DNA of 62,150 nt from an uncultured Anaerolineales bacterium (GTDB lineage: Bacteria; Planctomycetota; Phycisphaerae; FEN-1346), in NCBI GenBank assembly GCA_964539385.1, contig CAZIJC010000008.1, positions 1 to 62,150 on the forward strand, given 5' to 3'. The notes beneath the pieces were generated by a model. The model saw only the letters and a program-made list of their open reading frames with translations. It did no database searches and was not told where the DNA came from. The position numbers and the translations under genes were made by a program. Positions 45,210 through 62,150 of the stretch are shown in pieces (the first letter of the stretch is position 1; each line of letters opens with the position of its first letter).

Positions 45210-45701
45210 GTGGCAGACCTGAACGGGCACTACTTTCACACGCTTGATGCCAAGTCTCGGCTGACGATCCCGGCCAGACTGCGCGCGGGCATTAACCGAA
45301 GGAGAGAGGGCTACGGCTTCGTCGCCATCTGCAACTTGGATAATGCGTTGTCTCTCTATACGCCGAGCCGCTACGAGGAAATCGCTCCGCAGTTCGACGC
45401 GAGTTCGCGAACGGACCCCAACGTGCGGAACTTCGAACTGATAACCTATGGCTTGGCGGTAGACCTTGAGATGGACCGGATGGGCCGCGTCCTGATCCCG
45501 GACAACCTGATGGAGGAGTGCGGCCTCTCGGCTAGAGAGGTGGTCGTCGCTGGCGTCAAGGATCACATTGAGGTATGGCCGAGCGACAGGTGGGAGTCGC
45601 ATATCAAGGAGCAGAAGGCGAAGCGGGCCGCACTGGCGAAGCAGGTGCTGATGCACAAGAAGAAGAAGGCGCCGCCGCCGGCGGAAGAAGGTTCCCCATA
45701 G
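45210..45701 (+). CDS. mraZ: Division/cell wall cluster transcriptional repressor MraZ
   Basis: GHYFHTLDAKSRLTIPA and MDRMGRVLIP (two DxxxRxxIP), VVVAGVKDHIEVW. Confidence 0.93.
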   Translation: MADLNGHYFHTLDAKSRLTIPARLRAGINRRREGYGFVAICNLDNALSLYTPSRYEEIAPQFDASSRTDPNVRNFELITYGLAVDLEMDRMGRVLIPDNLMEECGLSAREVVVAGVKDHIEVWPSDRWESHIKEQKAKRAALAKQVLMHKKKKAPPPAEEGSP

Positions 45702-45874
45702 CCCCCTTGGGGGTTGCCTGGGTCGCTTAGGCGACCCGGGCGGCCCTTTATTGAAAAGTGAACGGCTGCGAGAGCGAGGGCGCCGGTCGGACTCGTGCCG
45801 GCGCCGCGACCGGATCCGATGCCGGCGAGGTCCAGCGAGGGGCACCTTGCGGCACGAGGCGCGGGAGGTGAAAC

Positions 45875-46114
45875 GTGCAACGACATGCGGACGCACAAGG
45901 TTGGGACGTGCTGCGACAGGCGATGGAAGCGCCCAACGCGGAGGCGTATCTGGCAGAGGGCGGGCGGCACCGCGAGGTGCGCCGGCTCCAGACGCGTCTG
46001 CGGCAGCTCCAGTCGCGCGGCGGCGCGTATCGCGGCGTGGAACTCAGCGACGACGTCGGCGCACTGCTCGCACGCCTGGAAGCAGGGGCCGCGCTGAGCA
46101 CATTGGTGCATTGA
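45875..46114 (+). CDS. 79-aa hypothetical protein between mraZ and rsmH
   Basis: Strong SD GGAGGTG at 45864-45870 before GTG; helical composition; stops 18 nt before rsmH. Confidence 0.55.
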   Translation: MQRHADAQGWDVLRQAMEAPNAEAYLAEGGRHREVRRLQTRLRQLQSRGGAYRGVELSDDVGALLARLEAGAALSTLVH

Positions 46115-46132
46115 CTGTAAGGTGGGGTCCGC

Positions 46133-47041
46133 GTGGGGACGCAAGCCGGGCATGTGCCGGTCATGCTCGAGGAGGTGATCGAGCATCTGGCGCCCCGGCC
46201 CGGTCAGGTTATCCTTGACGGAACGGCCGGGGGCGGGGGGTACGCGGCGGCGTTGCTCGAGCGGATTCGGCCCGGTGGCCGACTCGTCTTGCTGGATCGG
46301 GATAGTGGGGCCCTGGAGCGTTTGATCGCCCGATTCGGGCGCTGCGGGGATGTCAGGTATTTTCACGCCAACTTCTGCGATTTCGACGAGGTGCTGTCCG
46401 AAATCGAGCAGGAGCAAATCGACGGTGCCACACTTGACTTGGGACTTTCGAGTCCGCAACTGGCCGACGCGGACAGGGGATTCAGTTTCGAGGCGCCCGG
46501 CCTGCTCGACATGCGTTACGACCGGAGCCAGGCGCTCACGGCCGCCGAGATCGTCAACCACTGGCCCGCCGACCGCCTGGCCTCGATCTTCCGCGATTAC
46601 GGCGACCAGCCGTTTGCCAGGCGGATCGCGAAGGCCATCATCCGGGCGCGGCGCCGCCGCTCGATCCGCCGGACCGATGAGTTGGCCGAGACGGTGGCTG
46701 CGGCGGTCCCGGCGGCCTGGCGAAGAAAGCAGAAGATTCATCCGGCAACTCGCGTCTTTCAATCGATTCGAATCGCCGTTAATAATGAATACGGCAGCCT
46801 GAACACGTTCCTTGACAAGATATTTGACTACATAAAACCCGGCGGCCGCGTGGCCATCGTCGCGTTCCACAGCGGAGAGGACCGCATCGTGAAGACCCGT
46901 TTTCGCGAGGCGGCGAGCAGGGGCCTGGTAACGCTGCCCGTCACCAGGCCGATTACGCCTACGCCACGGGAGGTGAAGGCGAACCCGCGCTCGCGCAGCG
47001 GTCGTCTAAGAGTTGCCGTCCGCCTCGCCGCCGCCGGTTGA
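46133..47041 (+). CDS. rsmH: 16S rRNA m4C1402 methyltransferase
   Basis: HVPVMLEE, DGTAGGGG, DLGLSSPQL...RGFSF, LDMRYD, ATRVFQSIRIAVNNE, FHSGEDRIVK, NPRSRS. Confidence 0.97.
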   Translation: MGTQAGHVPVMLEEVIEHLAPRPGQVILDGTAGGGGYAAALLERIRPGGRLVLLDRDSGALERLIARFGRCGDVRYFHANFCDFDEVLSEIEQEQIDGATLDLGLSSPQLADADRGFSFEAPGLLDMRYDRSQALTAAEIVNHWPADRLASIFRDYGDQPFARRIAKAIIRARRRRSIRRTDELAETVAAAVPAAWRRKQKIHPATRVFQSIRIAVNNEYGSLNTFLDKIFDYIKPGGRVAIVAFHSGEDRIVKTRFREAASRGLVTLPVTRPITPTPREVKANPRSRSGRLRVAVRLAAAG

Positions 47042-47142
47042 GCATAGAGAGGACGCCTTCCCGGAGCGTTGCCGGCCCGCGGGGCTGCGGGGGCGTCGAA
47101 CGTGGGGATCCGTGGGGCACGCCGCATAGAAGAGGTGAGGAT

Positions 47143-48168
47143 ATGACCGTGGGGAGAGAAACCAAGGTTGGACTGTTGGTAGGTATCATCTTTATTGGAC
47201 TCTTTGGCCTGATTCTGGGTGGTCGGGCCGGGTCGGCTACACAGGAGCACGCGGCCTTGCCTGTTGGCGAGAGCGAGGTCCACGGCGCGCTGGCCCAGAC
47301 GATTCATCGCACGATTGACCCGTTTGCGCAGGATGGGCCACTGGATATACACGGTCCGGATACGCCGCCGGCTTCCGATGATGTCGTGACCGGCGACGAG
47401 TCGTTGCCCGTGCCGGAGTCTCTGCCGTTCAAGGAACCGGAGTTTGATGACAGCGCCGAGCCCGCCGAGCCCGCCGGGACCGACGATTTCGGCCTGGTGG
47501 CGTTCCTGCCGGAAACGGTGAAGACGCCGATGGGCGACCCGACGCCCGGCGGCGGGGAGGCCGGGGATGCCGGAGGAAAGGTCGCCTTCACGCGCGAGCC
47601 GCCACCGGCGCCGGCCGAGCAAGCGTCCCGCCCGGTCCACACGGTGCGCCGCGGCCAGACTCTGACCGCCATCGCTCGCGAGCATTACGGCAAGGACGGC
47701 CAGCGCCTGTGGCGGCGGATCTGGGAGGCCAACAAGGAGGCGGTTCCCGATCCGCACCGTCTGGCACAGGGGCAGAAACTGGTGATCCCGAAACTGCCGG
47801 TCCGTCTGCGGCCGGCAGCGCGCGAAGCGGCCATCGCCAAGGCGCCCGAGGCCGCTCCGTCAGACGTGTCCGGTCGCGACGGCGTCCCCGCCGTGACCGC
47901 CGACGAGTTGGGCCAGATGCTCGGCAATCGATCGGACCTGCTTGAGCGGCAGGCCAAACCGCCGGCTATGTACGAGGTGCGCAAGGGCGACACGTTCTAT
48001 CGGATCGCCACCAACCTGTACGGCGACGGCCGTCTTGCCCGGTTGCTCTTCCTCAAGAACAGGCATCTGGTTGCGGATGAGACGAAACTGCAAATCGGCC
48101 AGCGAATCGTGCTGCTGGATGGCGCGCGAGCGACCCCGGCGCCCGATTTGAGGATCGCTCGGCGATGA
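47143..48168 (+). CDS. Bitopic membrane protein with two LysM domains
   Basis: ETKVGLLVG TM; acidic Pro-rich linker; HTVRRGQTLTAIAREHYG..IWEAN and YEVRKGDTFYRIATNLYG. Confidence 0.9.
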   Translation: MTVGRETKVGLLVGIIFIGLFGLILGGRAGSATQEHAALPVGESEVHGALAQTIHRTIDPFAQDGPLDIHGPDTPPASDDVVTGDESLPVPESLPFKEPEFDDSAEPAEPAGTDDFGLVAFLPETVKTPMGDPTPGGGEAGDAGGKVAFTREPPPAPAEQASRPVHTVRRGQTLTAIAREHYGKDGQRLWRRIWEANKEAVPDPHRLAQGQKLVIPKLPVRLRPAAREAAIAKAPEAAPSDVSGRDGVPAVTADELGQMLGNRSDLLERQAKPPAMYEVRKGDTFYRIATNLYGDGRLARLLFLKNRHLVADETKLQIGQRIVLLDGARATPAPDLRIARR

Positions 48169-48488
48169 GACTGTGCATCCGGCTGGTTGTGCTGACGGCG
48201 TTTCTGGTGGCTCTGGCCATCGGGCTGATCGCGTTGCGGACCGACACGCATCAGGCCGGCAACCGGCTCCACTTGCTGTTTCGCGACAAGCGACGACTGG
48301 AGGGGGACTGCTGCCGGCTTGAAATTGAGATCGCTCGCCTCAAGAGCCAGGAGCGCCTGCACGAGCACGTTGCCGACCTCGAAGACGAGTCAACCGATGG
48401 ACCGAATGACCGCGGCCCCGCCGCGCCGCCCGGAAGCGCCGGCTGGCGCACGCGCCTGACGAACGACAACCTGCCGGGTCCGCCGTAA
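48165..48488 (+). CDS. ftsL: FtsL-like cell division protein
   Basis: N-terminal TM plus leucine heptad coiled coil (LE...RLEIEIARLKSQERL); lies immediately before ftsI. Confidence 0.65.
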   Translation: MRLCIRLVVLTAFLVALAIGLIALRTDTHQAGNRLHLLFRDKRRLEGDCCRLEIEIARLKSQERLHEHVADLEDESTDGPNDRGPAAPPGSAGWRTRLTNDNLPGPP

Positions 48489-48526
48489 CAGCGCACGCCA
48501 ACGCGAAGGAAGGGAAAGACCGCCCT

Positions 48527-50281
48527 GTGACGCCGGAGCCCCGCCAACGCCGCGTTGCCGCCATCTTGACGGTGGGCCTCTCCCTGCTGTTGGCGGCTCT
48601 GGCGGGGTTCCTGGTGTACATCTACGCCGCTTCGTCGGATGCGCTGGCGGCCCGTGCTTCGCGGCAGCAGCATATGCGCATCCCCATGCAGCCGATGCGC
48701 GGCAACGTCGTTGACGCGAAACTTCGCGTGCTGGCAGGCAGCCAGGCGATCCGGAGCGTCTTCGCGGACCCGAAGGTGGTCCAGGACGTGGCGGAGGCGG
48801 CCACCCGCGTCGCGCCGGTTCTCGGCCTCGACCGCGACGAGGTGTACCGAACGCTCGCCGAGGCCTCCGACAAACGGTTCGTGTGGCTGAAGCGGCGAGT
48901 CCCCACCGAAACGGCCGACGCGATCCACCGCCTCAAACTTCGGGGCGTCTCGCTGGCCACCGAAGGGGTGCGGCACTATCCGAACGGATCGCTGGCCGCT
49001 CACCTTCTTGGCTTTGTCGGCGTCGATGAGCAGGGCCTGGAGGGCCTGGAACGCCTTTTCGATGCGCGTCTGCGCGGACGGCCGGGCAAGGCCTGCGTTC
49101 TGGCCGACTGCCGGCGCCGGCCCATCTGGATGGAGCCCGACGACTTCACCCCGGCCCGGGACGGTCAGCACCTGGTTCTGACGATCGACGCCGTGATCCA
49201 GGCCGCCGCCGAACGGGCCATCGCCGAGGCCGTCCGGAAGTATCGCGCCGCCAGCGCCACCGCCATCGTCATGGACCCCACGACGGGTGCGATATGGGCC
49301 ATGGCCAACGTTCCCACATACGATCCCGCTCGCTACGGCGAGTTCTCTGCCGACGCACGGCGGAACCGGGCGGTTACGGACATGTTTCCGCCCGGCTCGA
49401 GCGGCAAGCCGTTCGCCGCGGCGGCGGCGGCCGAGGCCGGCGTCGTCCGCTTCGGCGAGGTCATCTATTGCGAGAACGGCTACTGGCCTGCCGCCAACCT
49501 GCACGACGCCGGACACGCCTACGGCAACCTGACCTTCGAGCAGGGAATCCAGAAGTCGAGCAACATTATGATGGGCAAGATCGGCACGCGACTCGGAAAC
49601 CGGCGACTGCGCGACGCGCTGGTGGCCTTCGGCTTCGGCCGCAAGACCGGCGTCTGGCTCCCCGGCGAGGTGCCGGGGTTGGTTTTTCCGCTGGCCCGAT
49701 GGACGCGGCTCAGCACGACCCGTGTGCCGTTTGGCCAGGAGTACATGGTTACGCCGCTGCAACTGATCACGGCGTTTGCGGCCTTCGCAAACGGGGGACG
49801 GATCATGCGGCCGAAGATACTGCGCGGCGTGCTGGACAACCGCGGACGCGTGGCCGTGGACCTGTCGCAGCCCCAGGTCGTCGGCCGAGCCATGACCGAG
49901 AAGACGGCCCGCGACATGATCGACCGCGCGCTGGTCGGTGTCGTCGAGAGCGGCACCGGGAAACGGTGCAAAATCCCGGGCTACAAGGTGTTTGCCAAAA
50001 CGGGTACCGCACAGAAGATCGACCCGGACACCAAAAGTATCAGCCACACGCTCTACGTGGGGGTGTTTCTGGCGGGGGTTCCTGCCGAGAATCCGCGGAT
50101 GGTGGTGCTCGTGTTGGTGAACGAGCCGGACAAGTCGCTCGGGTATTACGGCGGGACGGTGGCGGCCCCGGCTGCGAAGCAGATCCTCCAGCAGACGCTC
50201 ACCTACCTGGGCATTCCACCGAGCGAGCCGGTGTCCGGGCGCCGGGAGACGTATCTGGCCGGGCAGACCGTGGGGCACTGA
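48527..50281 (+). CDS. ftsI: Class B penicillin-binding protein (FtsI/PBP3-like)
   Basis: RGNVVD, RHYPNG, GLEGLE, LTIDAVIQ, SSGK, SSN, KTGTAQ. Confidence 0.93.
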   Translation: MTPEPRQRRVAAILTVGLSLLLAALAGFLVYIYAASSDALAARASRQQHMRIPMQPMRGNVVDAKLRVLAGSQAIRSVFADPKVVQDVAEAATRVAPVLGLDRDEVYRTLAEASDKRFVWLKRRVPTETADAIHRLKLRGVSLATEGVRHYPNGSLAAHLLGFVGVDEQGLEGLERLFDARLRGRPGKACVLADCRRRPIWMEPDDFTPARDGQHLVLTIDAVIQAAAERAIAEAVRKYRAASATAIVMDPTTGAIWAMANVPTYDPARYGEFSADARRNRAVTDMFPPGSSGKPFAAAAAAEAGVVRFGEVIYCENGYWPAANLHDAGHAYGNLTFEQGIQKSSNIMMGKIGTRLGNRRLRDALVAFGFGRKTGVWLPGEVPGLVFPLARWTRLSTTRVPFGQEYMVTPLQLITAFAAFANGGRIMRPKILRGVLDNRGRVAVDLSQPQVVGRAMTEKTARDMIDRALVGVVESGTGKRCKIPGYKVFAKTGTAQKIDPDTKSISHTLYVGVFLAGVPAENPRMVVLVLVNEPDKSLGYYGGTVAAPAAKQILQQTLTYLGIPPSEPVSGRRETYLAGQTVGH

Positions 50282-50320
50282 CCGGCGCTTCGGCCGTTGT
50301 GCCTTGTCAGGGGATGAGTC

Positions 50321-51793
50321 ATGAGGCTCAGCGAGTTAGCGGACCGCATTCCCGGCTCGCGTTTGATCGGGCCGGCCGACGTGGACGTGGTGCGTGCGGT
50401 TCATGATTCGCGCCGGGTCCGGGCCGGCGACCTGTTCGTGGCGCTCAGCGGCACGAAGGTTGACGGTCACCGGTTCGTCCAGGCGGCGCTGGAGGCCGGC
50501 GCCCGGGCGGCGGTGGTGGAGCGGCCGGTGGACCTTCCCGGCAGCCCGCCGCTGCTTCTCGTCAGCGACGCCCGCGAGGCCCTTGCCTTCGGTGCGCACG
50601 CCCTGGCCGGCGACCCGACGCGGCGACTCATCGTTTGCGGCGTAACCGGCACGAACGGGAAAACGACGACTACATATCTGGTCCGCAGCATCTTCGAGTG
50701 CGCGGGCTGGCCGACGGGCGTCCTCGGCACCATCGGCTACGTCATGGGTCGGCGCGAGATTCCCAGCCGCTTGACGACGCCCGACGCCGACGACCTGGCC
50801 GATTACTTCTCCGAGATGGTCGAGGCCGGGCTGAAGGCGGCCGTCATGGAGGTTTCGAGCCACGCCCTGCACCAGCGCCGCACGGCCGGCATCGCGTTCG
50901 ACGTGGGCGCCTTTACAAATCTCTATCCCGAACATCTAGATTATCATCCCGATATGTACTCCTACCGAGAGGCAAAGGGCATGCTCTTCGCCGGATTGGC
51001 GCCGGGCTCGCGGGCGGTCCTCAACGCCGACGAGGACGCAAGCGCCTCGTTCGCGGAAGCGACCGAGGCCGAGGTGCTCTGGTACGGCATCGAGGAGGCC
51101 GCCGACGTTCGGGCCGCGGACATCCGGAGCGACGTCGACGGCAGCCGGTTCGCACTGGTGACGGCGCGCGGACGGGCCGAGATACGCACGGCGTTGCTCG
51201 GCCGCCACAACGTGTACAACTGTCTGACCGCCGCGGCGATTGCCGAGGCCCTTGACGTGCCGCAGGAAGCGATCTCGGAAGGGATCAGGGCGGTCGAGGT
51301 CGTCCCCGGCCGCCTCGAACCGGTCCCGACGCGGCTGCCGGTCAACGTCCTTGTGGATTATGCACATACGACAGATGCGCTCAAACATGCCCTTTCGACG
51401 GTGCGGCGGCTGGTCGCGGGGCAGGGACGGCTGGCCGTGGTGTTCGGGTGCGGCGGGGACCGTGACAGGGGGAAGCGGCCGGCGATGGCCGCCGTTGCCC
51501 AGCAACTTGCCGACCGCGTGTTCGTCACCAGCGACAATCCCCGCACCGAACAGCCCGAGGCGATTGCCGATGAGATTCTGGCCGGCTTCTCCTCGATGAA
51601 GACCGTTAACGTGGAACTGGACCGGCGTGCGGCCATCGGACTGGCGCTCGGCGAGGCGGAGCCGGGCGACGTTGTCATCATCGCCGGCAAGGGGCATGAG
51701 ACCTATCAGATCATCGGCGACGTGACACGGCCGTTCGACGACCGCGAAGTCGCCGCCGAGATCCTGCGAACGTTGGAGGCCGACCGGCACTGA
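50321..51793 (+). CDS. murE: UDP-MurNAc-dipeptide:meso-DAP ligase
   Basis: GVTGTNGKTTT, MEVSSH, VDYAHT, FGCGGDRD..KR, SDNPR (mDAP-type), AGKGHE. Confidence 0.96.
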   Translation: MRLSELADRIPGSRLIGPADVDVVRAVHDSRRVRAGDLFVALSGTKVDGHRFVQAALEAGARAAVVERPVDLPGSPPLLLVSDAREALAFGAHALAGDPTRRLIVCGVTGTNGKTTTTYLVRSIFECAGWPTGVLGTIGYVMGRREIPSRLTTPDADDLADYFSEMVEAGLKAAVMEVSSHALHQRRTAGIAFDVGAFTNLYPEHLDYHPDMYSYREAKGMLFAGLAPGSRAVLNADEDASASFAEATEAEVLWYGIEEAADVRAADIRSDVDGSRFALVTARGRAEIRTALLGRHNVYNCLTAAAIAEALDVPQEAISEGIRAVEVVPGRLEPVPTRLPVNVLVDYAHTTDALKHALSTVRRLVAGQGRLAVVFGCGGDRDRGKRPAMAAVAQQLADRVFVTSDNPRTEQPEAIADEILAGFSSMKTVNVELDRRAAIGLALGEAEPGDVVIIAGKGHETYQIIGDVTRPFDDREVAAEILRTLEADRH

Positions 51794-51852
51794 CCGCCGG
51801 CTTGGTCCGAGCGCCGGCGCGTATGGGCCCGGCGTGTCACAGACGGGGCGAG

Positions 51853-53292
51853 ATGAAGTTTCGAGTTGACGAAATCGTGGACGCGACCGGCGGCCGCCTG
51901 GTTGCGGGGCCACCGGAGGCGGACGCGGGAACCGTCTGCACGGACACGCGCTTGCTCGCCCGGGCCCAGACGTTCCTGGCCCTGCGCGGTGAGCGTTTCG
52001 ACGGGCACGATTTTCTCGCGGATGCCGTCGGCCGAGGGGCGGCGTGCCTGGTTGTGGACCGCCGGAACCGTCTGCCGGAGTCTGCCCTGTCGCCGACGGT
52101 GGCGATGGTGGTTGTCGGCAGCACGCTCGATGCCTTGGCCGCACTCGGCCGCGCGGCCCGGGCGCGCCTCGCTTGCCCGGTCGTTGCCGTGACCGGGTCT
52201 TGCGGAAAGACGACCGTCAAGGACATGCTGGGTCAGATCCTGATCCGTCACCTGCGCGGGCGCACGCCCCGCGCCAGTTTCAACAACCGGATCGGCGTGC
52301 CGCTGACGCTGCTTGACGCCGAGCCCGAGGACGAGTTTGTCCTGTGCGAGATCGGCACGAACGCCCCGGGCGAGGTCGCGCACCTGGCACAGATCGCCCG
52401 GCCGACCATTGGGATTGTGACGCTCGTCGCGCCGGTCCATCTTGAAGGGCTCGGTACGCTCGACGACGTTGCCGAAGAGAAGGCGGCGCTGGTCGAGGCC
52501 ATCCCGCCGGACGGCGCCGCTATCCTGAACGCCGACGACCCGCGTGTGGCGGCTATGGCCGAGCGGTGCCGCGGCCGCATCGTGACCGTCGGCCTGACGT
52601 GGGAGGCCGACTTTCAGGCGGGTCACGTGATCCAGACGGACCACGGCCTGTACTTTACGACGACCGGCTCGGCGGGCTTTGAGATTCCCGTGTTGGGGGA
52701 GCACCAGGCGGTGTTGGCGCTGGCGGCGGCCGCCGCGGCGCGCGAGTTGGGCGTGTCGCTCGAGGAGTCGGCTGCGGCGCTCCGCGTTTTCAAGCCGCCG
52801 CCGATGCGGCTGGTCGCCGAGGAGGCCGGCGACGTGGTCGTTGTGAACGACGCGTACAACGCCAACCCGAGCAGCACGGCGGTGGCGCTGGGGCTGCTGG
52901 CTCTCTGGCCCGAGCGGCGGAAGGTGTTCTTCTGCGGCGACATGCTCGAACTGGGCGCCGAGAGCCGCACCCATCACGAGCAACTCGGACGGGCGATCGC
53001 CGAATCCGGCGTGGTACGGCTCGTTTGCGTCGGCGCCGAATCGAAGGCGACCGCCGCGACGGCCGTCGCGGCCGGTCTGGCGGCCGAGAACGTGACGAGC
53101 GTGCCGGACGCCGACGCCGCAGCCGCAATGGCTTCAGACGTGGTTGCCGACGGCGATGTTGTTCTCGTCAAAGGGTCGCGTGCCGTGCGAATGGAGACCG
53201 TGGCGGAAGTGATTCTCGCCGGGCGGCGGGTACTGGGCGACAGGCCGCAGGGCACTCGCCCCGGCGAGTGGCATCCCGCAAATGAGCAGTGA
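51853..53292 (+). CDS. murF: UDP-MurNAc-tripeptide:D-Ala-D-Ala ligase
   Basis: ALRGERFDGH, VTGSCGKTTVK, FNNRIGVPLTL, NDAYNANP, GDMLELG, LVKGSR. Confidence 0.96.
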   Translation: MKFRVDEIVDATGGRLVAGPPEADAGTVCTDTRLLARAQTFLALRGERFDGHDFLADAVGRGAACLVVDRRNRLPESALSPTVAMVVVGSTLDALAALGRAARARLACPVVAVTGSCGKTTVKDMLGQILIRHLRGRTPRASFNNRIGVPLTLLDAEPEDEFVLCEIGTNAPGEVAHLAQIARPTIGIVTLVAPVHLEGLGTLDDVAEEKAALVEAIPPDGAAILNADDPRVAAMAERCRGRIVTVGLTWEADFQAGHVIQTDHGLYFTTTGSAGFEIPVLGEHQAVLALAAAAAARELGVSLEESAAALRVFKPPPMRLVAEEAGDVVVVNDAYNANPSSTAVALGLLALWPERRKVFFCGDMLELGAESRTHHEQLGRAIAESGVVRLVCVGAESKATAATAVAAGLAAENVTSVPDADAAAAMASDVVADGDVVLVKGSRAVRMETVAEVILAGRRVLGDRPQGTRPGEWHPANEQ

Positions 53293-54665: not shown

Positions 54666-55859
54666 ATGACCACAGCGGCACAGCCGGTGGCACGCAGCGG
54701 GGCCCGTAACGTGCCGACCGACGCGATGGGCCGCCCGCTGACCGAGCCGTGCATCCTGTTCCTGATCGTGTTGGCGCTCGTGACGCTCGGCGTGCTGCTC
54801 GTTTACAGCGCCAGCCGGACGGCCGACGCCGCCGACACGACCCGCTATTTTCCGAAGCAGGCGTACTTTGCCCTGGCGGGGCTGGGGGTGTTTATCCTCG
54901 GCGCGATCGTTCCCTACCATCGGCTCAACCGTTGGTGGGTGGCCATCGGGGTGTTGGGCCTGGCGGTCGGACTTCTGGTGCTGGTTCTGTTTATCGGAAG
55001 CGGGCGCGGCGGCGCGAGGCGGTTTCTGAAACTGCCGCTCGGGCTGCACTTCCAGCCGTCGGAACTGGCGAAGTTTGCCGTCGTGATCTTCCTGGCCTGG
55101 TTTTACGGCCGGTCGAAGGCGCGGGCGCGCAACTTCGTCAGGAGTTTTCTGCCCGCCATCGCCGTCATCGCCGTGGTCTGCGGACTAATCGTCAAGGAAG
55201 ACTTCGGCACGGCCGCGCTGGTGGGCGCGGTGGCGGTGATCCTGTGCCTCATCGCCGGGTGGCGGTGGTGGTTCCCGACGCTGATCCTGGCGCCGGCCGC
55301 CGTCGGCGCCTACGTCACCGTCTGGCTGGTTCCCTACCGCCTGGACCGGCTGAGGGTATGGCTCGACCCGTGGGAGTACTTCACCGGCGCCGGGTGGCAC
55401 GTGTGCCAGAGCCTCATGGCCCTCGGCAGCGGCGGCCTGACCGGCGTGGGCCTGGGCTCCGGCATCCAGAAACTGTACGTCCCGGACAACGCGACCGATT
55501 TCATCTTCGCGGTCCTGTGTGAGGAGATGGGCATTCTGGGCGGCATCATGGTCATCGGCCTGTTCGGCGTGTTCGTGTGGCGTGCGGGGAAGATCATCCG
55601 GTCGGCGCCGGACCGGTTCGCGTTCCTGCTGGCATCGGGCATTCTGCTCGTGATCGGCCTTCAGGCGATCATGAACATCGGCGTCGTGACGAGCGCCCTG
55701 CCGGCAAAGGGCATCGGCCTGCCGCTGGTCAGTTACGGCGGGTCGAGCCTGCTGATGATGTGCTTCGCGGCGGGGCTGCTGGCCTCCATCGCAAGGCGGC
55801 GCGATGCGCAGGCGGCCGGCACCAGGCCGCTGGTCCACGTGCCGGCCAGACGAGGCTGA
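54666..55859 (+). CDS. ftsW: SEDS peptidoglycan polymerase FtsW
   Basis: VYSAS, GARRFL, FQPSELAK, EDFGTA, TDFIFAVLCEEMG, KGIGLPLVSYGGSS. Confidence 0.93.
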   Translation: MTTAAQPVARSGARNVPTDAMGRPLTEPCILFLIVLALVTLGVLLVYSASRTADAADTTRYFPKQAYFALAGLGVFILGAIVPYHRLNRWWVAIGVLGLAVGLLVLVLFIGSGRGGARRFLKLPLGLHFQPSELAKFAVVIFLAWFYGRSKARARNFVRSFLPAIAVIAVVCGLIVKEDFGTAALVGAVAVILCLIAGWRWWFPTLILAPAAVGAYVTVWLVPYRLDRLRVWLDPWEYFTGAGWHVCQSLMALGSGGLTGVGLGSGIQKLYVPDNATDFIFAVLCEEMGILGGIMVIGLFGVFVWRAGKIIRSAPDRFAFLLASGILLVIGLQAIMNIGVVTSALPAKGIGLPLVSYGGSSLLMMCFAAGLLASIARRRDAQAAGTRPLVHVPARRG

Positions 55860-55873
55860 GGACACCCATCGCC

Positions 55874-57091
55874 ATGCGCGAAACGGGGCGGCGAATCTTC
55901 ATGGCAGGCGGCGGCACGGGGGGACATCTGTATCCCGGCCTGGCCGTGGCCGAGGCGATTCGCAGGCTCCAGCCCGAAGCGGCCATCGCCTTCTCCTGCA
56001 CGCGCCGGCCCATCGACCGGAAGGTCCTGGCCGACTGTGGCTTCCCCGTGACGCCGATCGACGCCCGGCCGTTCCGGAGGGCCCCATGGACGTGGCCGGC
56101 TTTCGTGGTCAGCCTCGTGCGGAGCGGCAACCAGGCCCGCCGCCGGCTTCGTGAGTTCTGTCCCGACGTGGTCCTCGGCCTCGGCGGATTCGGCAGTTAC
56201 GCCCCCGTGCGGGTCGGCCAAAAATACGGTGCCGCCACCGCCGTTCTCAACCCGGACATCGTGCCGGGCAGGGCGAACCGGCGCCTGGCGAGACGGTCCG
56301 ACCGCATCTTCTGCCAGTTCAAGCAGACCGTCGACTTGCTCGGCGACCGGGCCCGGCTGACCGGGTGCCCGGTCCGGCCGAGCCTCCTCGCCTGCACCCG
56401 CGAAGAGGGGCGCCGGGCGTTCGGACTGGACGCCGAGCGGCAAACGCTCCTCGTCACGGGCGCGAGCCTCGGCGCCCGAACCGTCAACCGTGCGGCTGTT
56501 GCGATGCTCCGCGGGCGCGGCCTGCCGGACGGCTGGCAGGTGCTTCATCTGACCGGTCACGCCGAGTACGAGGACGTGTCGGCAAGTTACGAGGGGCTCG
56601 CGGTTCCTGCCGCCGTCCGGCCGTATGCCGAGAAGATGGGCCTCGCCTGCGCCGCCGCCGACCTGGCCGTGGCCAGGGCCGGGGCGTCCACCATCGCCGA
56701 ACTGCTGGCGGCCGCCGTCCCGGCCGTCTTCATGCCGTACCCGTTCCATCGCGACCAGCATCAGATGCGGCAGGCACGGGCCGTCGAGGCGACCGGCGCG
56801 GCGGTCGTCGTCCAAGACCGTCCGGAGGATCCCGGCACGTGGCAGCGCCTGGCGGAAACGGTCACGGCGCTCATGACGGATTCCGGCCGTCTGGATGGGA
56901 TGCGTGAGTGTGCCCGCGCGGCCGGCCGCCCCGATGCGGCCGAGGACGTCGCACGCCGGGTCGTGGAACTCGCCGACGGCGTCACACGGCGCCGCCACGC
57001 GCGGATTGAATCCGAGACGGCCCCCGCCGGGCGAGACGTTGACACCGCCGCCCACGCATCTTACACTCGGACCGGAGACGGAAACGGATGA
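55874..57091 (+). CDS. murG: Undecaprenyl-PP-MurNAc-pentapeptide GlcNAc transferase
   Basis: AGGGTGGHLYPG, GLGGFGS, TGCPVR, GASLGA, ARAGASTIAEL. Confidence 0.95.
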   Translation: MRETGRRIFMAGGGTGGHLYPGLAVAEAIRRLQPEAAIAFSCTRRPIDRKVLADCGFPVTPIDARPFRRAPWTWPAFVVSLVRSGNQARRRLREFCPDVVLGLGGFGSYAPVRVGQKYGAATAVLNPDIVPGRANRRLARRSDRIFCQFKQTVDLLGDRARLTGCPVRPSLLACTREEGRRAFGLDAERQTLLVTGASLGARTVNRAAVAMLRGRGLPDGWQVLHLTGHAEYEDVSASYEGLAVPAAVRPYAEKMGLACAAADLAVARAGASTIAELLAAAVPAVFMPYPFHRDQHQMRQARAVEATGAAVVVQDRPEDPGTWQRLAETVTALMTDSGRLDGMRECARAAGRPDAAEDVARRVVELADGVTRRRHARIESETAPAGRDVDTAAHASYTRTGDGNG

Positions 57092-58524
57092 CCCCATCAA
57101 ACGCACGACCGCCGTCCGGACCTTACGCAGGACGCTCGATCCACTTCATCGGCGTGGGCGGATGCGGCATGAGCGGCCTGGCGGAATTCGTCCTCACCGA
57201 AGGCGGCCGGGTCAGCGGGTCCGACATCAAGGCCGGCGCTGCGACCGAGCGCCTGGCACAACGGGGCGTGACCATTCACGTCGGGCATGGCAAGGGGAAC
57301 GTCCCGGCGGGGGCGGACCTCGTTGTCCATAGCGCTGCCGTCAAGGCGGACAATCCCGAATTCCTCGAGGCCCGTCGCCGGGGCACTGCCACGTTGAAGT
57401 ACGCCGAGTTCCTCGGCCAACTGATGACGCTCAGGCTGGGCATCGCCGTCAGCGGGACACACGGCAAGAGCACGACGACCGCCCTGGCGGCCTACGTGCT
57501 GTCGGAGGCGGGGCTGGATCCGAGTTTCGTCGTCGGCGCCGACGTGCCGCAACTCAAGGGCGGGGCGCGCGTCGGCAACGGACCGCACCTGGTGGTCGAG
57601 GCCTGCGAGTACGACCGCTCGTTCCTGAACTTCGCGCCGCATGCGGCGGCCGTCTTGAACGTCGAGGAGGACCATCTCGATTACTTCCGGGACCTGGCGG
57701 ACGTTCGGGATGCGTTTGCCGATTTTGCGTCTCGCACGGCGACCGAGGGCCTGCTCGTCGTCAATGGGGCCGACCCCGGCATGGACGAGGTTGCCGCCCG
57801 GGCCCGCTGCCGCGTCGAGACGTTCGGCATCGGCGGGGGGTGGGATTGGCATGCCGAGAACCTGCACGCCGACGCCGGGCGATACGCGTTCGACGTGTAC
57901 CGCCGGGACGCGCCGTTTGCCTCGGTCACCCTGGCGCTGGCCGGCGAGCACCACGTCCTGAACGCCCTGGCGGCAGCGGCGCTCAGCGCGTGGGCGGGTG
58001 CGCCGGCGGAAGCGATCGGCGGGGCGCTCGGGCGGTTCCAGGGCGCATCGCGGCGCATGGAGGTCCTTGGCCGGGTCGCAGACGTGACGGTCGTGGACGA
58101 CTACGCCCATCATCCGACGGAGATCCGTGCGACGCTCGCGGCCGCACGCCAGCGGTTCTCGCCGCAGCGCCTGTGGGTGGTGTTCCAGCCGCATCAGCAC
58201 AGCCGCACGCGGTTCCTGCTAAAAGATTTTGCGCAGGCGCTGAAGGTGGCCGATAAGATTATCGTCCCGGATATCTATTTCGTCCGCGATAGCGAGAACG
58301 AGCGTCAGGCCGTCTGCAGCCAGGACCTGGTGAAGGAGATCAGGGGCCTGGGCGCCGATGCGCGGTACGTCGAGGACTTCGATTCCATCCGCCGGCACCT
58401 GATTGAGGGCTTGGGTCCCGGCGACGTGCTCATGACCATGGGCGCCGGCGACGTGTGGCGCCTGGCGGAGCCGCTGCTGGCAGACCTTGTCGGGGCGCCT
58501 GGCCGGGGTCGGTCCCAGGCTTGA
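57088..58524 (+). CDS. murC: UDP-N-acetylmuramate:L-alanine ligase
   Basis: IHFIGVGGCGMSGLA, SGTHGKSTTT, EACEYDRSFL, DDYAHHPTEI, FQPHQHSRT, MGAGDV. Confidence 0.97.
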   Translation: MTPSNARPPSGPYAGRSIHFIGVGGCGMSGLAEFVLTEGGRVSGSDIKAGAATERLAQRGVTIHVGHGKGNVPAGADLVVHSAAVKADNPEFLEARRRGTATLKYAEFLGQLMTLRLGIAVSGTHGKSTTTALAAYVLSEAGLDPSFVVGADVPQLKGGARVGNGPHLVVEACEYDRSFLNFAPHAAAVLNVEEDHLDYFRDLADVRDAFADFASRTATEGLLVVNGADPGMDEVAARARCRVETFGIGGGWDWHAENLHADAGRYAFDVYRRDAPFASVTLALAGEHHVLNALAAAALSAWAGAPAEAIGGALGRFQGASRRMEVLGRVADVTVVDDYAHHPTEIRATLAAARQRFSPQRLWVVFQPHQHSRTRFLLKDFAQALKVADKIIVPDIYFVRDSENERQAVCSQDLVKEIRGLGADARYVEDFDSIRRHLIEGLGPGDVLMTMGAGDVWRLAEPLLADLVGAPGRGRSQA

Positions 58525-58544
58525 GCGCACGCAGAGGAAGCGCG

Positions 58545-59432
58545 ATGACGATCTTCAAAGGCCTCGAGACAATCGTGCAGAAGGACTTTCCCCTGGGCCC
58601 GATAACCACGTTCGGTGTCGGCGGCAAGGCCCGGTATTTCGTGCGGCCTCGGACCGAGGATCAGTTGCGCGAGACAATCGAGCGGTGCGGAAAGAAGAAA
58701 CTCGACATCCACGCCATCGGACGCGGCTCGAACGTCCTGGTCAGGGACGAGGGCGTCAAGGGCGCCGTCATCCAACTCGACCCGAAAGCGTTTGGACGCA
58801 TCACGATCGAAGAGGACCTCCTGCGGGCCGGCGCCGCCGCGCCCCTGCCGAAGGTGGTTGCCGAGGCCGCGCGGCACAGCCTCTCGGGGGTCGAGTGCCT
58901 GGTGGGCGTCCCGGGAACCGCCGGCGGGGGCGTCCGCATGAATGCCGGCGGCGCCTACGGCGACATCGGCCAGACCGTGGAGCGCATCAAGGTCATGGAT
59001 GCCCACGGCGAGACGTTCTATCGCGAGCGAGAGGACCTGGCGTTCGGCTACCGCACGAGCAACGTCTCGGCCCGGTTCATCCTGGAGGTCGAGTTGCGGC
59101 TGCTGCCCGATAGCGTCTCGGCCATCAACAAGCGGATGAAGAAGATCTGGATCGCCAAGAAGAACAGCCAGCCGATGAGCGCCGCGACGGCGGGCTGTGC
59201 CTTCAAGAACCCGCGGGGCCTGGCGGCCGGGCTGCTCATCGAGCAGGCGGGCCTGAAGGGAACCGCCGTTGGCGGCGCCGCCGTCTCACGCAAGCACGCC
59301 AACTTCATCGTCATCAGGGACAAGAAGAAAACGAAAGCCGCCGACGTGCTCGCCCTCATCGAACTGGTGCGCAAGGCCGTCAAGGACCGCTTTGACGTGT
59401 ACTTGGAGTTGGAGATCGAGGTCTGGCCATGA
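58545..59432 (+). CDS. murB: UDP-N-acetylenolpyruvoylglucosamine reductase
   Basis: TTFGVGGKA, GRGSNVLV, GVPGTAGG.VRMNAG, FGYRTS, AGCAFKNP, KHANFI. Confidence 0.96.
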   Translation: MTIFKGLETIVQKDFPLGPITTFGVGGKARYFVRPRTEDQLRETIERCGKKKLDIHAIGRGSNVLVRDEGVKGAVIQLDPKAFGRITIEEDLLRAGAAAPLPKVVAEAARHSLSGVECLVGVPGTAGGGVRMNAGGAYGDIGQTVERIKVMDAHGETFYREREDLAFGYRTSNVSARFILEVELRLLPDSVSAINKRMKKIWIAKKNSQPMSAATAGCAFKNPRGLAAGLLIEQAGLKGTAVGGAAVSRKHANFIVIRDKKKTKAADVLALIELVRKAVKDRFDVYLELEIEVWP

Positions 59433-60403
59433 CCGTCCCGGTGCCGCAACTCGAACCCGCGAAGTTCATCGAGCCGGGCACGCTGACGATCGGCGTCCTG
59501 ATGGGCGGCCCGTCGCGCGAACGGAAGATCAGCCTCGAAAGCGGTCGCGCGGTGGCCGAGGCGCTCGAGGGGCTGGGTCACGAGGTTCGCCCGGCCGACG
59601 TGCGCCCCGGGGACGTGACGCCCGAACTGGTCTGCGACATGGACGTGACGTTCCTGGCGCTGCACGGCACGTGGGGCGAAGACGGGGGGGTGCAGCGGGA
59701 ACTCCAGACCCTCGGCGCCTGCTACACGGGCAGCGGGCCCGAGGCCAGCCGACTCGCCATGGACAAGGTGGCCGCCAAGGAGCGATTCTCCGGCGACGGG
59801 ATACCGACGCCGGCGTTCCGCGTCCTGACGAGCGGCGATGAAGTAATGCTGGAGGAGGCGATGGAGCGGATCGGGCCCGACCTGGTCGTCAAACCCGTCG
59901 CCGGCGGGTCGAGCATCGACGTGTACACGGTGGACTCGCTTCGGGCGCTTCGCGGCGCGGTCGAGAAGGTCTGTGTGCGAGGCGAGCCGGCGCTGGTCGA
60001 ACGCCGCATCGTCGGCCGCGAGTTTACGGTCGGCGTGCTCGGGGACTCGGCGCTTCCGACGCTGGAGATACGCACACCGAGCGGCCGCTACGGATACAAA
60101 GAGAAGTACCTGGCGAAGAGCACCAGGTACATCTTCGACCACGGCCTGCCGGCCGACGTGGAGCAGCGTGCGGTGAATGCGGCGCTGGCGGCACACCGCG
60201 TGCTGGGGTGCCGGGACCTCTCACGCGTGGACATGATCATCACGCCGGAGGGCGAACCCGAGGTTCTGGAAGTGAATACGATTCCGGGCTTCACGAGGCA
60301 CAGCCTGGTTCCGAAGGCCGCCGCGCAGGCCGGGCTGGCGTTCGGACGCCTGTGCGAGCGGATCGTTGCCATGGCCCGCCAGCGGGCGGACCGCCCGGAC
60401 TGA
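59429..60403 (+). CDS. ddl: D-alanine--D-alanine ligase
   Basis: GGPSRERKISLESG, LHGTWGEDG, MDK, VVKP..GGSSI, YKEKY, EVNTIPGFT. Confidence 0.95.
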   Translation: MTVPVPQLEPAKFIEPGTLTIGVLMGGPSRERKISLESGRAVAEALEGLGHEVRPADVRPGDVTPELVCDMDVTFLALHGTWGEDGGVQRELQTLGACYTGSGPEASRLAMDKVAAKERFSGDGIPTPAFRVLTSGDEVMLEEAMERIGPDLVVKPVAGGSSIDVYTVDSLRALRGAVEKVCVRGEPALVERRIVGREFTVGVLGDSALPTLEIRTPSGRYGYKEKYLAKSTRYIFDHGLPADVEQRAVNAALAAHRVLGCRDLSRVDMIITPEGEPEVLEVNTIPGFTRHSLVPKAAAQAGLAFGRLCERIVAMARQRADRPD

Positions 60404-60471
60404 GGCCGGCCGGAATGACGTTAGCCGCCGGCCTTGCCCGGCGCGCTCGGTACGTGGGAGATTAGGATCGT

Positions 60472-61419
60472 ATGGGAGGCGCACGATTGCCAAGAGGCAC
60501 CGGGAACAAGCCCGTGGTGAAGGGTTCCAAGCGACGGTTTGCCCGCCGCGTCGCCAAGGCGGCGCTCGTCGCGGTGGCGACGGCGCTGGTGGGCGTGGCC
60601 GCGATGTACGGTCTCGGCCTCTTGCGCGGGCACGCCCGGGAGGCGCCCACCCATCAGGTGTCGGCAGCGAGTCTGCGCCTGGTCAAGGGACCCGCCTGGA
60701 TGACCCCGGCGATCCTGGCGGAACTGGACGTCGGCTTGCTGGACCCGGAGTTCCCCCAACGGTTCAGCCTGCTGGATGACGGTGTCTCGCAGCGGATTGC
60801 GGCCGCATACGAAGCGTGCGTGTGGGTCGAGCGCGTCCGGAAGATCGTCAAGCACGATCCGCGTGTGGATCCTGACCGTCCGCCGCTTGAGGTCCACCTG
60901 AAGTTCCGCCGTCCTGCGGCGTTCGTCCGATCGCGGGGCGGGTTTTGCCTGGTCGATTCCTGCGGCGTGCGGCTGCCGGGCGTGTATAGCGAACCGCGCC
61001 TCGGCCGCGTGGCGCTGCTCGTCATCAGCGGCGTGACGTCGAGCCCGCCGAACGTCGGGCAGGTGTGGTCGGATGCGCGCCTGGAGGCGGGCGTCCGCGT
61101 GGCCGAAGCCGTCGGGCCCAGGCGCCAGGTGTTCCGCCTGGTCTCGATCGACGTCTCGAACGTGGGCGGCCGGCACGACCCGCGCGACACCGAGATCGCC
61201 CTGTTCACCGCCAACGGGACACGCATCAAGTGGGGCAGGGCGCCCACCGCCGATGCGGAATTGCTCCAGGAAAAAAGCCCCGACGCCAAGGTTGCCTACC
61301 TCGACTTCGTCTACAAGCACATGAACGGGCAGGTGGACGGCGTCCTGGCGTACATCGACATTCCGAACGAGGCCGTCCGGCGGCGCCCTGCCGATACGGG
61401 TAGCCGCCTCCGGAGTTAG
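60472..61419 (+). CDS. ftsQ: FtsQ/DivIB-like cell division protein (divergent)
   Basis: Basic N-tail, TM, POTRA-like WVERV..., FRRPAAFV..FCLVDSCGVRLP, IKWG, YIDI; follows ddl. Confidence 0.7.
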   Translation: MGGARLPRGTGNKPVVKGSKRRFARRVAKAALVAVATALVGVAAMYGLGLLRGHAREAPTHQVSAASLRLVKGPAWMTPAILAELDVGLLDPEFPQRFSLLDDGVSQRIAAAYEACVWVERVRKIVKHDPRVDPDRPPLEVHLKFRRPAAFVRSRGGFCLVDSCGVRLPGVYSEPRLGRVALLVISGVTSSPPNVGQVWSDARLEAGVRVAEAVGPRRQVFRLVSIDVSNVGGRHDPRDTEIALFTANGTRIKWGRAPTADAELLQEKSPDAKVAYLDFVYKHMNGQVDGVLAYIDIPNEAVRRRPADTGSRLRS

Positions 61420-61422
61420 GCG

Positions 61423-62150
61423 ATGGCCACGTCCGGCAGCGACGCGGGTGCGGGTGTGGCCGGGCCGCCGGCGCCGGCCCGCGCCTGGGTGCTCCTGCCC
61501 GTTGTGTGGTGCCTCTGGCTGCTTCTGTCGCTGGTTCCCACGCTGCTTGTTGCTCCGCATCTTCTGTCGCCACGGCCGTGGCTGACGCGCGAGACGGCCC
61601 CGTCGGCGGTGCTTGCTGCGATGGCATTCTTCCTGGCGGCGGTCTGGCCGTTCTGGCCGGCGTTGGCGGGGCGCGTCCGACAGAAAAAGGGAACAGGCAA
61701 AAAGGGGACTGGCTCCTTTTCCTGCTTTTCGGAAAAGGTGCCTGTCCCCTTTTTGCAGAACGCAAGCGCGGTCTGCCGATGGCTCGGCGCCAGCGCCCTG
61801 GAGTTCGTCGTCCTTTTCTCACTGGCCGCGCCGTTTGTCCTCGTGGCATGGTCGGTGAGCGGCGGGAGACTGGCGGTGGCGCCCGCGGTGGTCTCGGTCG
61901 CCGGGCTCGGCATCTTCGGCCTGGGCCTGCGGACGGCCGCCGCGGGAATGGTCCCGGGCGCGGCCCGCTGGCTGATGCTTGCCGCCATGTTGGTGTGCGC
62001 GGGGCCGCTGGTCCTGGGGTACGCCGCCGCTGAAACGATGGGCGTGTCGCTGCCCTGGCTGCTGGAGGTCTCGCCCGTTTTCGAGTTGGTCCGCGTCGGG
62101 CTGGACGCCTGGCCGCAGGCGTCGTGGCCGAGGATCGCGCGGCTGTGGCT
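61423..62150 (+). CDS. Polytopic membrane protein of unknown function (runs off the window; absent from the ORF track)
   Basis: ATG 3 nt after the ftsQ stop; frame open to the end: MATSGSDAG..AWVLLPVVWCLWLLLSLVP..LAAMAFFLAAVWPFWP..LEFVVLFSLAAPFVLVAW..; several hydrophobic helices. Confidence 0.75.
   Translation, partial: MATSGSDAGAGVAGPPAPARAWVLLPVVWCLWLLLSLVPTLLVAPHLLSPRPWLTRETAPSAVLAAMAFFLAAVWPFWPALAGRVRQKKGTGKKGTGSFSCFSEKVPVPFLQNASAVCRWLGASALEFVVLFSLAAPFVLVAWSVSGGRLAVAPAVVSVAGLGIFGLGLRTAAAGMVPGAARWLMLAAMLVCAGPLVLGYAAAETMGVSLPWLLEVSPVFELVRVGLDAWPQASWPRIARLW
61684..61756. repeat. AAAAAGGGGAC(A/T)GGC-type palindromic repeat inside the CDS
   Basis: 61697-61722 and 61731-61756 are inverted copies (24/26), preceded by a partial copy. 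Confidence 0.85.

Follow-up and report, generated by a model that had tools for sequence, protein, structure and literature searches.

A Phycisphaerae dcw operon lacking ftsZ and ftsA carries three conserved, lineage-specific genes for which a role in division is inferred

We analyzed the cell wall and division (dcw) gene cluster at positions 45210-62150 of contig CAZIJC010000008.1 (assembly GCA_964539385.1), from an uncultured bacterium that is probably a member of the Phycisphaerae. The window is this entire contig of 62,150 nucleotides, so its last gene is truncated; the source genome measures 5.13 Mb in 363 contigs and is 90.4% complete. Our best reading, which we regard as probable, is that of a dcw operon from a Phycisphaerae lineage without FtsZ or FtsA, with three conserved lineage-specific genes as candidates for a role in division. 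These encode a 79-amino-acid protein upstream of rsmH (orf79), a bitopic LysM protein between rsmH and ftsL, and a protein with six transmembrane (TM) helices after ftsQ, for which we use the working name memX. That the three are genuine, positionally fixed members of Phycisphaerae dcw operons is very probable, and linkage together with domain logic makes a part in division or septal wall synthesis somewhat probable. The features of the operon are as follows.

45210..45701, plus strand: mraZ (Pfam MraZ, 85.6 bits; TIGR00242, 97.6 bits, slightly below its cut-off; GTG start at 45210)
45875..46114, plus strand: orf79, a soluble lineage-specific small protein (conserved slot, Shine-Dalgarno [SD]-like GGAGGTG, coding substitution pattern)
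46133..47041, plus strand: rsmH (mraW) (Pfam Methyltransf_5, 306 bits)
47143..48168, plus strand: bitopic LysM protein (Pfam LysM; ATG at 47143 with SD-like sequence)
48165..48488, plus strand: ftsL-like gene, TM helix and coiled coil (TIGR02209, 23.7 bits, below cut-off; conserved position)
48527..50281, plus strand: ftsI (Pfam Transpeptidase, 226.5 bits; PBP_dimer, 63.2 bits)
50321..51793, plus strand: murE (Mur ligase N, M, and C domains)
51802..53292, plus strand: murF (Mur ligase domains)
53456..54586, plus strand: mraY (Glycos_transf_4, 115.3 bits, and MraY signature)
54666..55859, plus strand: ftsW (FTSW_RODA_SPOVE, 298.6 bits)
55874..57091, plus strand: murG (Glyco_transf_28 N- and C-terminal domains; start at ATG 55874 or 55901)
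57088..58524, plus strand: murC (Mur ligase domains)
58521..59432, plus strand: murB (MurB_C and FAD_binding_4; start at TTG 58521 or ATG 58545)
59429..60403, plus strand: ddl (Dala_Dala_lig_C and Dala_Dala_lig_N)
60472..61419, plus strand: divergent ftsQ (predicted fold and position after ddl)
61423..62150, plus strand: memX, six TM helices, ABC-2-like predicted fold (3' end lost at the contig end)
61680..61762, no strand assigned: 83-bp palindrome inserted in frame into the memX TM2-TM3 loop (sequence, self-match on the minus strand)

All of these genes lie on the plus strand in the order given and are closely spaced, with -4 to 173 nucleotides between neighbors and 4-nucleotide overlaps at LysM gene/ftsL, murG/murC, murC/murB, and murB/ddl. 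Pfam matches were obtained for 12 of the 17 open reading frames (ORFs) scanned, namely 11 collinear canonical dcw genes and the LysM gene; no match was obtained for the remaining five, which are orf79, memX, the ftsL- and ftsQ-like ORFs, and an ORF in an alternative frame over mraY. The single-strand, collinear run of mraZ, rsmH, ftsL, ftsI, and mur, mra, and fts genes places the stretch among dcw clusters; a murD between mraY and ftsW, and ftsA-ftsZ after ftsQ, are lacking. An earlier note, made from the sequence alone, had called the canonical order intact, which holds for the 11 genes placed by Pfam but not for murD, a gene missing from that note's list, which lies on another contig (C40:24198-25517; TIGR01087, 394.6 bits; G, C, L, and f numbers are our handles for genomes, contigs, loci, and families). 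In the source genome and in all aligned relatives of its family, mraY directly precedes ftsW.

The full order from mraZ to memX is held in five genomes of the window's family, and four partial contigs agree with it; the three extra ORFs occupy the same slots in these relatives, with 35-81% amino acid identity. The placement of orf79 and the LysM gene upstream of ftsL was as the earlier note described, as was the membrane protein gene beginning 3 nucleotides after ftsQ, and comparison of synteny bore out the conservation of all three in the dcw clusters of relatives. The DNA is 66-71% G+C and contains many long spurious frames. A scan for promoters and terminators, uninformative in such GC-rich DNA, gave 4 promoter-like sites (1.1 expected) and 14 terminator-like sites (9.5 expected), with no promoter-like site upstream of mraZ.

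ftsZ and ftsA are gone in this Phycisphaerae lineage, as in the whole phylum. A search for the tubulin/FtsZ family gave no match in the 90.4%-complete source genome, and the same search returned a match in 13 of 14 control genomes. FtsZ was likewise without a match in 16 other genomes of the family and FtsA in 21, and the FtsA equivalog TIGR01174 scored above its cut-off in none of the 27 genomes of the order. The FtsA-domain matches in the source genome belong to MreB (MreB_Mbl, 460.6 bits) and two PilM proteins. In the five relatives with longer contigs, the next gene after memX is a convergent one for a lipid-A acyltransferase (lpxL-like), with queA and then a UDPGP-family gene beyond it; because the convergent lpxL-like gene comes next in all five, we take the operon to end at memX. 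The earlier statement that no ftsA or ftsZ follows ftsQ is thus borne out, and it extends to the genome as assembled. Across the class, 5 of 151 genomes gave tubulin/FtsZ matches above the cut-off; the scores are low throughout (37-41 bits), and no genome of the window's family is among the five. These weak matches (G036, G086, G092, G098, and G140; loci L052-L055) are ORFs of 445-542 residues, four of them from one genus, and may be divergent FtsZ/tubulin-like paralogues.

Other division genes are present. The genome-wide search outlined in the earlier note, for FtsZ, FtsA, FtsB, FtsK, and MreB, found neither of the first two and located MreB, FtsK, and an FtsB/DivIC-family gene outside the cluster; MurJ is also encoded elsewhere (356 bits) and is above its cut-off in 24 of the 27 genomes of the order. 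The FtsB/DivIC-family gene (C262:4169-4378; locus L081:1153-1926) matches PF04977 at 34.4 bits against a cut-off of 28.9, and its product combines a TM helix with a coiled coil and bears the motif "DPAYAEQ...PGE." This family was above the cut-off in 14 of 101 class genomes, and in f1 it was found in 8 of 9 at E values of 0.001 or less. The source genome has a single SPOR-domain match (C86:16463-16678), no Amidase_3 (AmiA/B/C-type) match, and no FtsE above the cut-off.

Pfam recognizes neither of the genes that the earlier note had named ftsL and ftsQ; the former has a subthreshold family match, and the latter is supported by its predicted fold. The ftsL-like ORF (107 residues) matches TIGR02209 with an E value of 3.3e-5 and 23.7 bits against a cut-off of 42.45. 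It has the FtsL architecture, short and bitopic with a coiled coil, and sits upstream of ftsI in a conserved slot. The 315-residue ftsQ-like protein had no match in Pfam or NCBIfam at E values up to 1, POTRA_1 and FtsQ_DivIB_C included, and a profile search of PDB sequences retrieved no FtsQ. Among its homologues, 1 of 103 carries a precomputed PF03799 assignment and 2 are named FtsQ by their sources. An AlphaFold2 model built with 45 homologues reached a predicted local distance difference test score (pLDDT) of 90.6, and with it Foldseek ranked FtsQ/DivIB structures at positions 1-11 in the PDB (best, 5z2w_A; E value, 4.7e-6; probability, 1.00). We accept the ORF after ddl as a divergent FtsQ on the basis of modeled fold, topology, and position.

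The LysM protein appears to be the strongest candidate of the three, judging from its class-wide occurrence, the overlap of its gene with ftsL, its predicted wall-binding periplasmic end, and its invariant anchor. It is predicted to have 5-8 cytoplasmic residues, one TM helix, a linker of ~140 residues rich in Pro, Glu, and Asp, and two LysM repeats. Pfam LysM matches two stretches with 44.9 bits against a gathering score of 20.9, or 45.4 bits when the protein is read from ATG 47143, which is the likely start and has an SD-like sequence ahead of it. Within the window's family, the slot is kept at 40-63% identity, and the window, like 5 of 5 loci of the family, shows the 4-nucleotide overlap with ftsL. 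We then surveyed 20 rsmH-anchored loci from 17 other families of the class. A bitopic ORF between rsmH and the FtsL-like ORF or ftsI was found in 17 of the 20, and Pfam LysM was above the cut-off in 16 of these 17, the exception being the f14 locus. In the loci without it (f10, f13, and f20), the rsmH copy in question has no ftsL or ftsI after it, and at least one of these genomes has a second rsmH copy adjoining a homologue of the small ORF. The gene lies between rsmH and ftsL in 14 families, with 21-31% identity to the window protein outside its own family, and in broken-up clusters (L063, L064, L068, and L072) it remains with rsmH, ftsL, and ftsI. Several closed class genomes contain it (e.g., loci L064, L072, and L075). 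Outside the class, we examined 20 loci representing 18 phylum families. A LysM ORF fills the rsmH-ftsL slot at 2, both from one family (36.6 and 43.4 bits); at the remaining 18, ftsL or ftsI comes after rsmH with no LysM ORF between.

An alignment of 17 of these proteins gave the N-terminal sequence MxRETK[IV]GLLxG, in which E6 and L11 never vary and K8 is kept in at least 90% of the sequences, followed by a variable linker and 2-3 LysM repeats; in the window protein, the anchor reads MxxRETKxGLLxG and leads into the TM helix. From its sequence, this anchor looks made for packing against another TM helix. We considered the LysM protein as a stand-in for a missing FtsN/SPOR system, an idea weakened by the SPOR-domain ORF in the genome. 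An attempt to link the gene to the essentiality data published for P. limnophila led nowhere, as the tags given there to mraW and ftsI are non-adjacent and "LysM" is absent from the portions of the texts used.

The second embedded gene, orf79, bears the marks of a constrained coding sequence. It has the SD-like sequence GGAGGTG 5 nucleotides upstream, and among six orthologues the differences by codon position number 377/307/602, with 329 synonymous and 517 non-synonymous differing codon pairs. Five more families have orthologues of 76-86 residues, with SD-like sequences, in the mraZ-rsmH interval. A profile run against 5.8 billion proteins gathered 192 clusters, all unnamed or "hypothetical" and mostly of 79-82 residues. 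In the class, 59 of 151 genomes have orf79, with one match per genome (f1, 15/16; f2, 4/4; f3, 17/19; f6, 2/3; f9, 2/2; f11, 4/7; f13, 8/14; f15, 4/4; f17, 1/1; f18, 1/6). The position of rsmH was known for 49 of the 59 matches, and by a hand count from two tables, 46 of these 49 share the strand of rsmH and lie no more than ~260 bp upstream of it; the exceptions are the three weak f15 matches. The product is soluble, with a conserved core RLxxhxxxGxxaxxhxhSxD. It had no match in Pfam (E values up to 1) or NCBIfam and no usable match in the ESM Atlas, and a profile search of PDB sequences gave coiled-coil noise alone. Many Phycisphaerae and other planctomycete genomes have two rsmH copies (e.g., G122, G104, G110, G029, and G236), with linkage to orf79 and the dcw genes seen for one copy only.

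The third gene, memX, starts at 61423, after the ftsQ stop at 61419. Orthologues have 230-265 residues, and the window copy is short by ~20 residues, the last TM helix. It is present in 19 of 21 genomes of the window's family, where the ftsQ-memX spacing is -4 to +3 nucleotides in 9 of 9 loci. A single-sequence query found it weakly in 1 of 5 sister-family genomes and in none of 14 others. In the sister family, an ORF of 240-262 residues with six TM helices directly follows ftsQ in 4 of 4 loci examined, and this form is homologous to memX (hhalign probability, 99.0; E value, 4e-18; 197 columns). With a merged profile, the 151 class genomes gave matches in f1 (15/16), f2 (4/4), f3 (4/19), f17 (1/1), and f5 (1/20, weak) and nowhere else. 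Of the matches outside the order, five were examined: in three, ftsQ was detected and memX directly follows it; in another, no ftsQ was detected and memX lies 1.2 kb after ddl; and the fifth has no dcw gene within 7 kb. memX follows ftsQ in at least three families. The family is narrow, with 79 clusters at 90% identity, and a search of 1.84 billion proteins returned 33 representatives of the same narrow family, all of 276 residues or fewer and none fused. Shortly downstream of memX in the sister family, on the same strand, there are ORFs with a Prok-RING_1 domain (L056:19014-19997 and L058:2-1120). At L073 (G094, f18), where memX was undetected, a different ORF of 269 residues with six TM helices and no Pfam match follows ftsQ (1523-2332, minus strand); it may be an analogous occupant of the slot.

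The structure of memX was modeled with AlphaFold2 on a full-length orthologue (G003; 56 sequences; pLDDT, 79.1; predicted template-modeling score, 0.75). The model has six long helices, with two short helices between TM5 and TM6, and so shows the six-TM arrangement with re-entrant TM5-TM6 helices that is expected of an ABC-2 permease. The top Foldseek rows in the PDB were NosY, PmtD, ABCG, KpsM, and Wzm, with a best E value of 0.011, none reaching 0.001, and template-modeling scores of 0.47-0.52. By VIA-align, an independent search, membrane domains of ABC transporters made up 16 of the top 17 rows at Z scores of 9.8-13.3 (NosY, 13.0, with a root mean square deviation of 4.5 over 210 residues; KpsM, 11.5; Wzm, 10.8; CcmB, 9.8), and rank 8 was an entry titled "mycobacterial efflux pump." We accept an ABC-2-like fold because the match list is coherent and full-length, despite the modest scores. 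Two observations weigh against it: Z scores up to ~13 can arise from the arrangement of a helical bundle alone, according to the note supplied with the tool, and 13 family members had no Pfam match at E values up to 1, ABC2_membrane included, so that there is no sequence link to ABC-2 proteins. memX likewise had no match in NCBIfam or, by profile search, among PDB sequences, and in the ESM Atlas it fell among unnamed Planctomycetota clusters, the nearest Pfam-bearing cluster being ABC2_membrane_3 at a weak score of 0.75. A prediction of an FtsQ-memX complex returned no answer (score, 0.00), which counts neither for nor against binding. On the model, memX lies in the ftsA slot yet is structurally no analogue of FtsA.

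The TM2-TM3 loop of memX is variable among orthologues (minimum, 7; median, 12; maximum, 40 residues) and is modeled with low confidence. In the window and its genus, it holds the 83-bp palindromic insert, which is AT-richer; a second copy lies at C11:44882-44950 (86% identical) and a fragment on C78. In two relatives, G007 and G017, this loop carries another, different insert.

The analysis shows which genes these are, how they are conserved and arranged, what folds are predicted for them, and that FtsZ and FtsA are absent; the three extra proteins are most likely lineage-specific envelope or divisome accessories. The LysM protein would serve as a peptidoglycan-binding accessory of the FtsL/FtsI/FtsW septal synthase, tethering or localizing it to the wall by a logic comparable to that of FtsN (SPOR) or DipM/NlpD (LysM). 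memX, of ~250 residues and translationally coupled to ftsQ, could be a late-divisome membrane partner or a handler of a lipid-linked envelope substrate, and the orf79 product may be a small cytoplasmic factor of the mraZ/rsmH module. For the division role and for all physical contacts of the three proteins, we infer rather than observe. None of the three is plausible as a filament former or a cytoskeletal substitute for FtsZ. The LysM protein and memX do not resemble a ring former or an FtsA-like tether, because the former has only a 5-8-residue cytoplasmic stub and the latter has short loops and an ABC-2-like predicted fold; nor is memX or the small ORF a general substitute for FtsZ, because searches for them gave no match in many class families that lack FtsZ. 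The earlier note had put the inserted genes forward as candidate organizers of an "FtsZ-independent division module." Their conservation and tight placement stand, but the label overstates the case, since none is a plausible filament former. The two outcomes that it had named as able to refute its proposal, ftsA/ftsZ turning up beyond the window or elsewhere in the genome and the inserted genes lacking conservation in relatives, were not what we found.

A number of observations weigh against a part in division, and they lend weight to an alternative that we consider rather unlikely, namely that the genes are real but serve general envelope or housekeeping purposes, encoding a LysM protein anchored to the wall, one subunit of a transporter, and a small regulator, and became fixed in place for co-expression, with no specific part in cytokinesis. 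LysM domains are generic peptidoglycan binders that occur in many unrelated proteins with many roles, and where this one matches NCBIfam best, to the YgaU-type "peptidoglycan-binding protein LysM" (74.6 bits; cut-off, 134), the match covers the LysM region only. The other two genes are patchy among FtsZ-less families: with the present profile, orf79 had no match in 11 of the 21 class families, FtsZ-less ones among them, and memX was not found in most class families that also lack FtsZ and FtsA, with 0 matches in 14 of 21. In G008, a genome of 2.3 Mb, memX (L029; G008:C24, ~17518-18150) has an in-frame TAG and is ~40 residues shorter, which means either that the gene is dispensable or a pseudogene there or that the assembly is in error. 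Nearly all dcw genes are, moreover, non-essential in the budding planctomycete P. limnophila, according to the portions of PMC10632474 and PMC12283558 drawn on here; therefore, membership of a dcw cluster in this phylum is no guarantee of a function in division. Co-expression alone, however, fits poorly with positions held over large evolutionary distances, as with the LysM gene in the rsmH-ftsL slot of 14 families at 21-31% identity, with its 4-nucleotide overlap with ftsL and the -4 to +3 nucleotides between ftsQ and memX, and with the persistence of the LysM gene beside rsmH, ftsL, and ftsI where clusters have broken up.

It is also conceivable, if decidedly improbable, that memX is the membrane domain of an ABC-2 transporter whose ATPase is encoded elsewhere and which moves a lipid-linked envelope substrate, as Wzm, TarG, and KpsM do, its link to ftsQ then reflecting the supply of envelope precursors and not the organization of the divisome. 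The fold matches to the membrane domains of NosY, Wzm, KpsM, TarG, and ABCG speak for this, as does the Atlas cluster noted above, at its score of only 0.75, and the source genome has at least 27 ABC-ATPase-like loci that could supply an unlinked partner. On the other side, no ATPase gene adjoins memX, whether downstream in nine loci (five of the window's family and four of the sister family) or upstream in the window, there are no fused forms, and the TM2-TM3 loop is variable, modeled with low confidence, and tolerant of a repeat insertion. The missing ATPase neighbor also counts against our own reading of the fold. We considered memX as a replacement for MurJ, that is, an Amj-like alternative lipid II flippase, and set this aside as the main reading, since the source genome itself encodes MurJ, as do 24 of the order's 27 genomes, and a further flippase is unneeded. 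An artifact, in which the extra ORFs would be chance frames and ftsA/ftsZ would lie past the end of the contig or in the 10% of the genome that is unassembled, is extremely improbable. The high G+C content with its spurious long frames, the 363 contigs, and the end of the window at a contig end would allow it; all three ORFs, however, are conserved as proteins across genera and families, the longer contigs of relatives show the operon ending after memX, and FtsZ and FtsA were not found in 16 and 21 other family genomes, respectively.

Returning to accessories of the septal synthase as the preferred reading, a bolder form of it, which we judge improbable, would make the LysM anchor protein the lineage's own organizer of septal wall synthesis, perhaps in company with memX and the orf79 product. 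Peptidoglycan binding in the periplasm, combined with docking of the RETK-GLLxG anchor on FtsL/FtsI/FtsW, would produce a wall-templated, self-reinforcing localization and activation of the FtsQLB-FtsWI synthase. If true, this would account for binary fission in Phycisphaerae without FtsZ or FtsA.

The division of FtsZ-less planctomycetes is an acknowledged open question, and published surveys, in the portions considered here, scored known division genes only. Those of PMC6952346 and PMC5147048 describe a binary-fission-like division of Phycisphaerae without FtsZ, and the former raises whether "a different main protein" drives it. The FtsZ/FtsA-less dcw pattern in Phycisphaerae is already published. 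We found no description of the embedded genes in the parts of the planctomycete division literature covered, and the existence and conserved position of the three look unreported. Our analysis adds three testable candidates: a class-wide LysM anchor protein, a small protein, and an ABC-2-fold protein in the ftsA slot. With closed class genomes available, and one family outside the class that has the LysM gene, tests in cultured strains look feasible.

Two further observations concern the contig and its origin. Between ~16000 and ~30000, the window has a G+C content of 0.58-0.64, against 0.66-0.71 elsewhere; an ORF of the pentapeptide-repeat/ion-channel kind (26047-27456) and one for an N6/N4 DNA methylase (27489-28697) lie within this stretch, which may be a horizontally acquired island. 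By record title, 15 related loci divide into 4 Phycisphaerae, 3 Planctomycetota, and 8 uncultured Anaerolineales, the last with a Phycisphaerae-type locus (L039, L042, L043, L046-L049, and L051), and homologous proteins carry Phycisphaerae or Planctomycetes as source names. The organism is probably an uncultured Phycisphaerae and the eight Anaerolineales titles mislabels.

Among known systems, the divisome has several peptidoglycan binders: FtsN, which is bitopic with a SPOR domain; DipM and NlpD, which combine LysM with LytM; and YneA, a division inhibitor with a TM helix and LysM. The LysM protein is like these in its short N terminus, single TM helix, flexible linker, and C-terminal wall-binding domain. 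It is unlike FtsN, DipM, and NlpD in having no SPOR or LytM domain and, with a cytoplasmic part of 5-8 residues, no FtsA-binding tail; the C-terminal SPOR domain and cytoplasmic tail that define FtsN are thus both lacking. The NCBIfam YneA model gave 17.5 bits against a cut-off of 60, through the LysM repeat only, and the DipM and NlpD models, whose cut-offs are 311-900, matched in orthologues only, with no more than 29 bits and again through the LysM repeat. By these sequence comparisons, the protein falls outside the YneA, DipM, NlpD, and FtsN families.

The modeled memX resembles ABC-2/type V exporter domains (NosY, Wzm, KpsM, TarG, PmtD, and ABCG) in its six TM helices, the short TM5-TM6 helices, and a near-full-length match. 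It differs from them in having no detectable sequence similarity, no adjacent or fused ATPase, and a variable TM2-TM3 loop, the loop in which ABC-2 permeases have their coupling helix. FtsX, which works with FtsE, is of a different fold class; memX is unlike it, with no FtsX match in either fold search and no FtsE above the cut-off in the genome. FtsEX, an ABC-transporter-like component of the divisome, is nonetheless a precedent for memX, as a transporter-like membrane complex that works in division and not in transport.

The canonical dcw order is mraZ-rsmH-ftsL-ftsI-murE-murF-mraY-murD-ftsW-murG-murC-murB-ddl-ftsQ-ftsA-ftsZ. The operon described here has the same genes from mraZ to ftsQ in the same order, with tight packing and several 4-nucleotide overlaps; unlike the canonical cluster, it has murD relocated, ftsA and ftsZ gone from the genome, and three extra genes embedded. 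The portions of PMC12283558 (2025) used here report for Phycisphaerae and Planctomycetales a nearly complete dcw set without ftsZ, ftsB, ftsA, and alr; that survey scored known orthologous groups and in these portions makes no mention of embedded lineage-specific genes, the term "LysM" occurring 0 times. Its finding that ftsB is lost in Phycisphaerae contrasts with the DivIC-family gene detected in this genome. The operon is otherwise like the near-complete FtsZ-less clusters given there for Chlamydiota, Phycisphaerae, and Planctomycetales, in which mur, fts, and mra genes are kept, and because ftsZ and ftsA are lost while these genes are retained, we regard the window as an instance of that published pattern.

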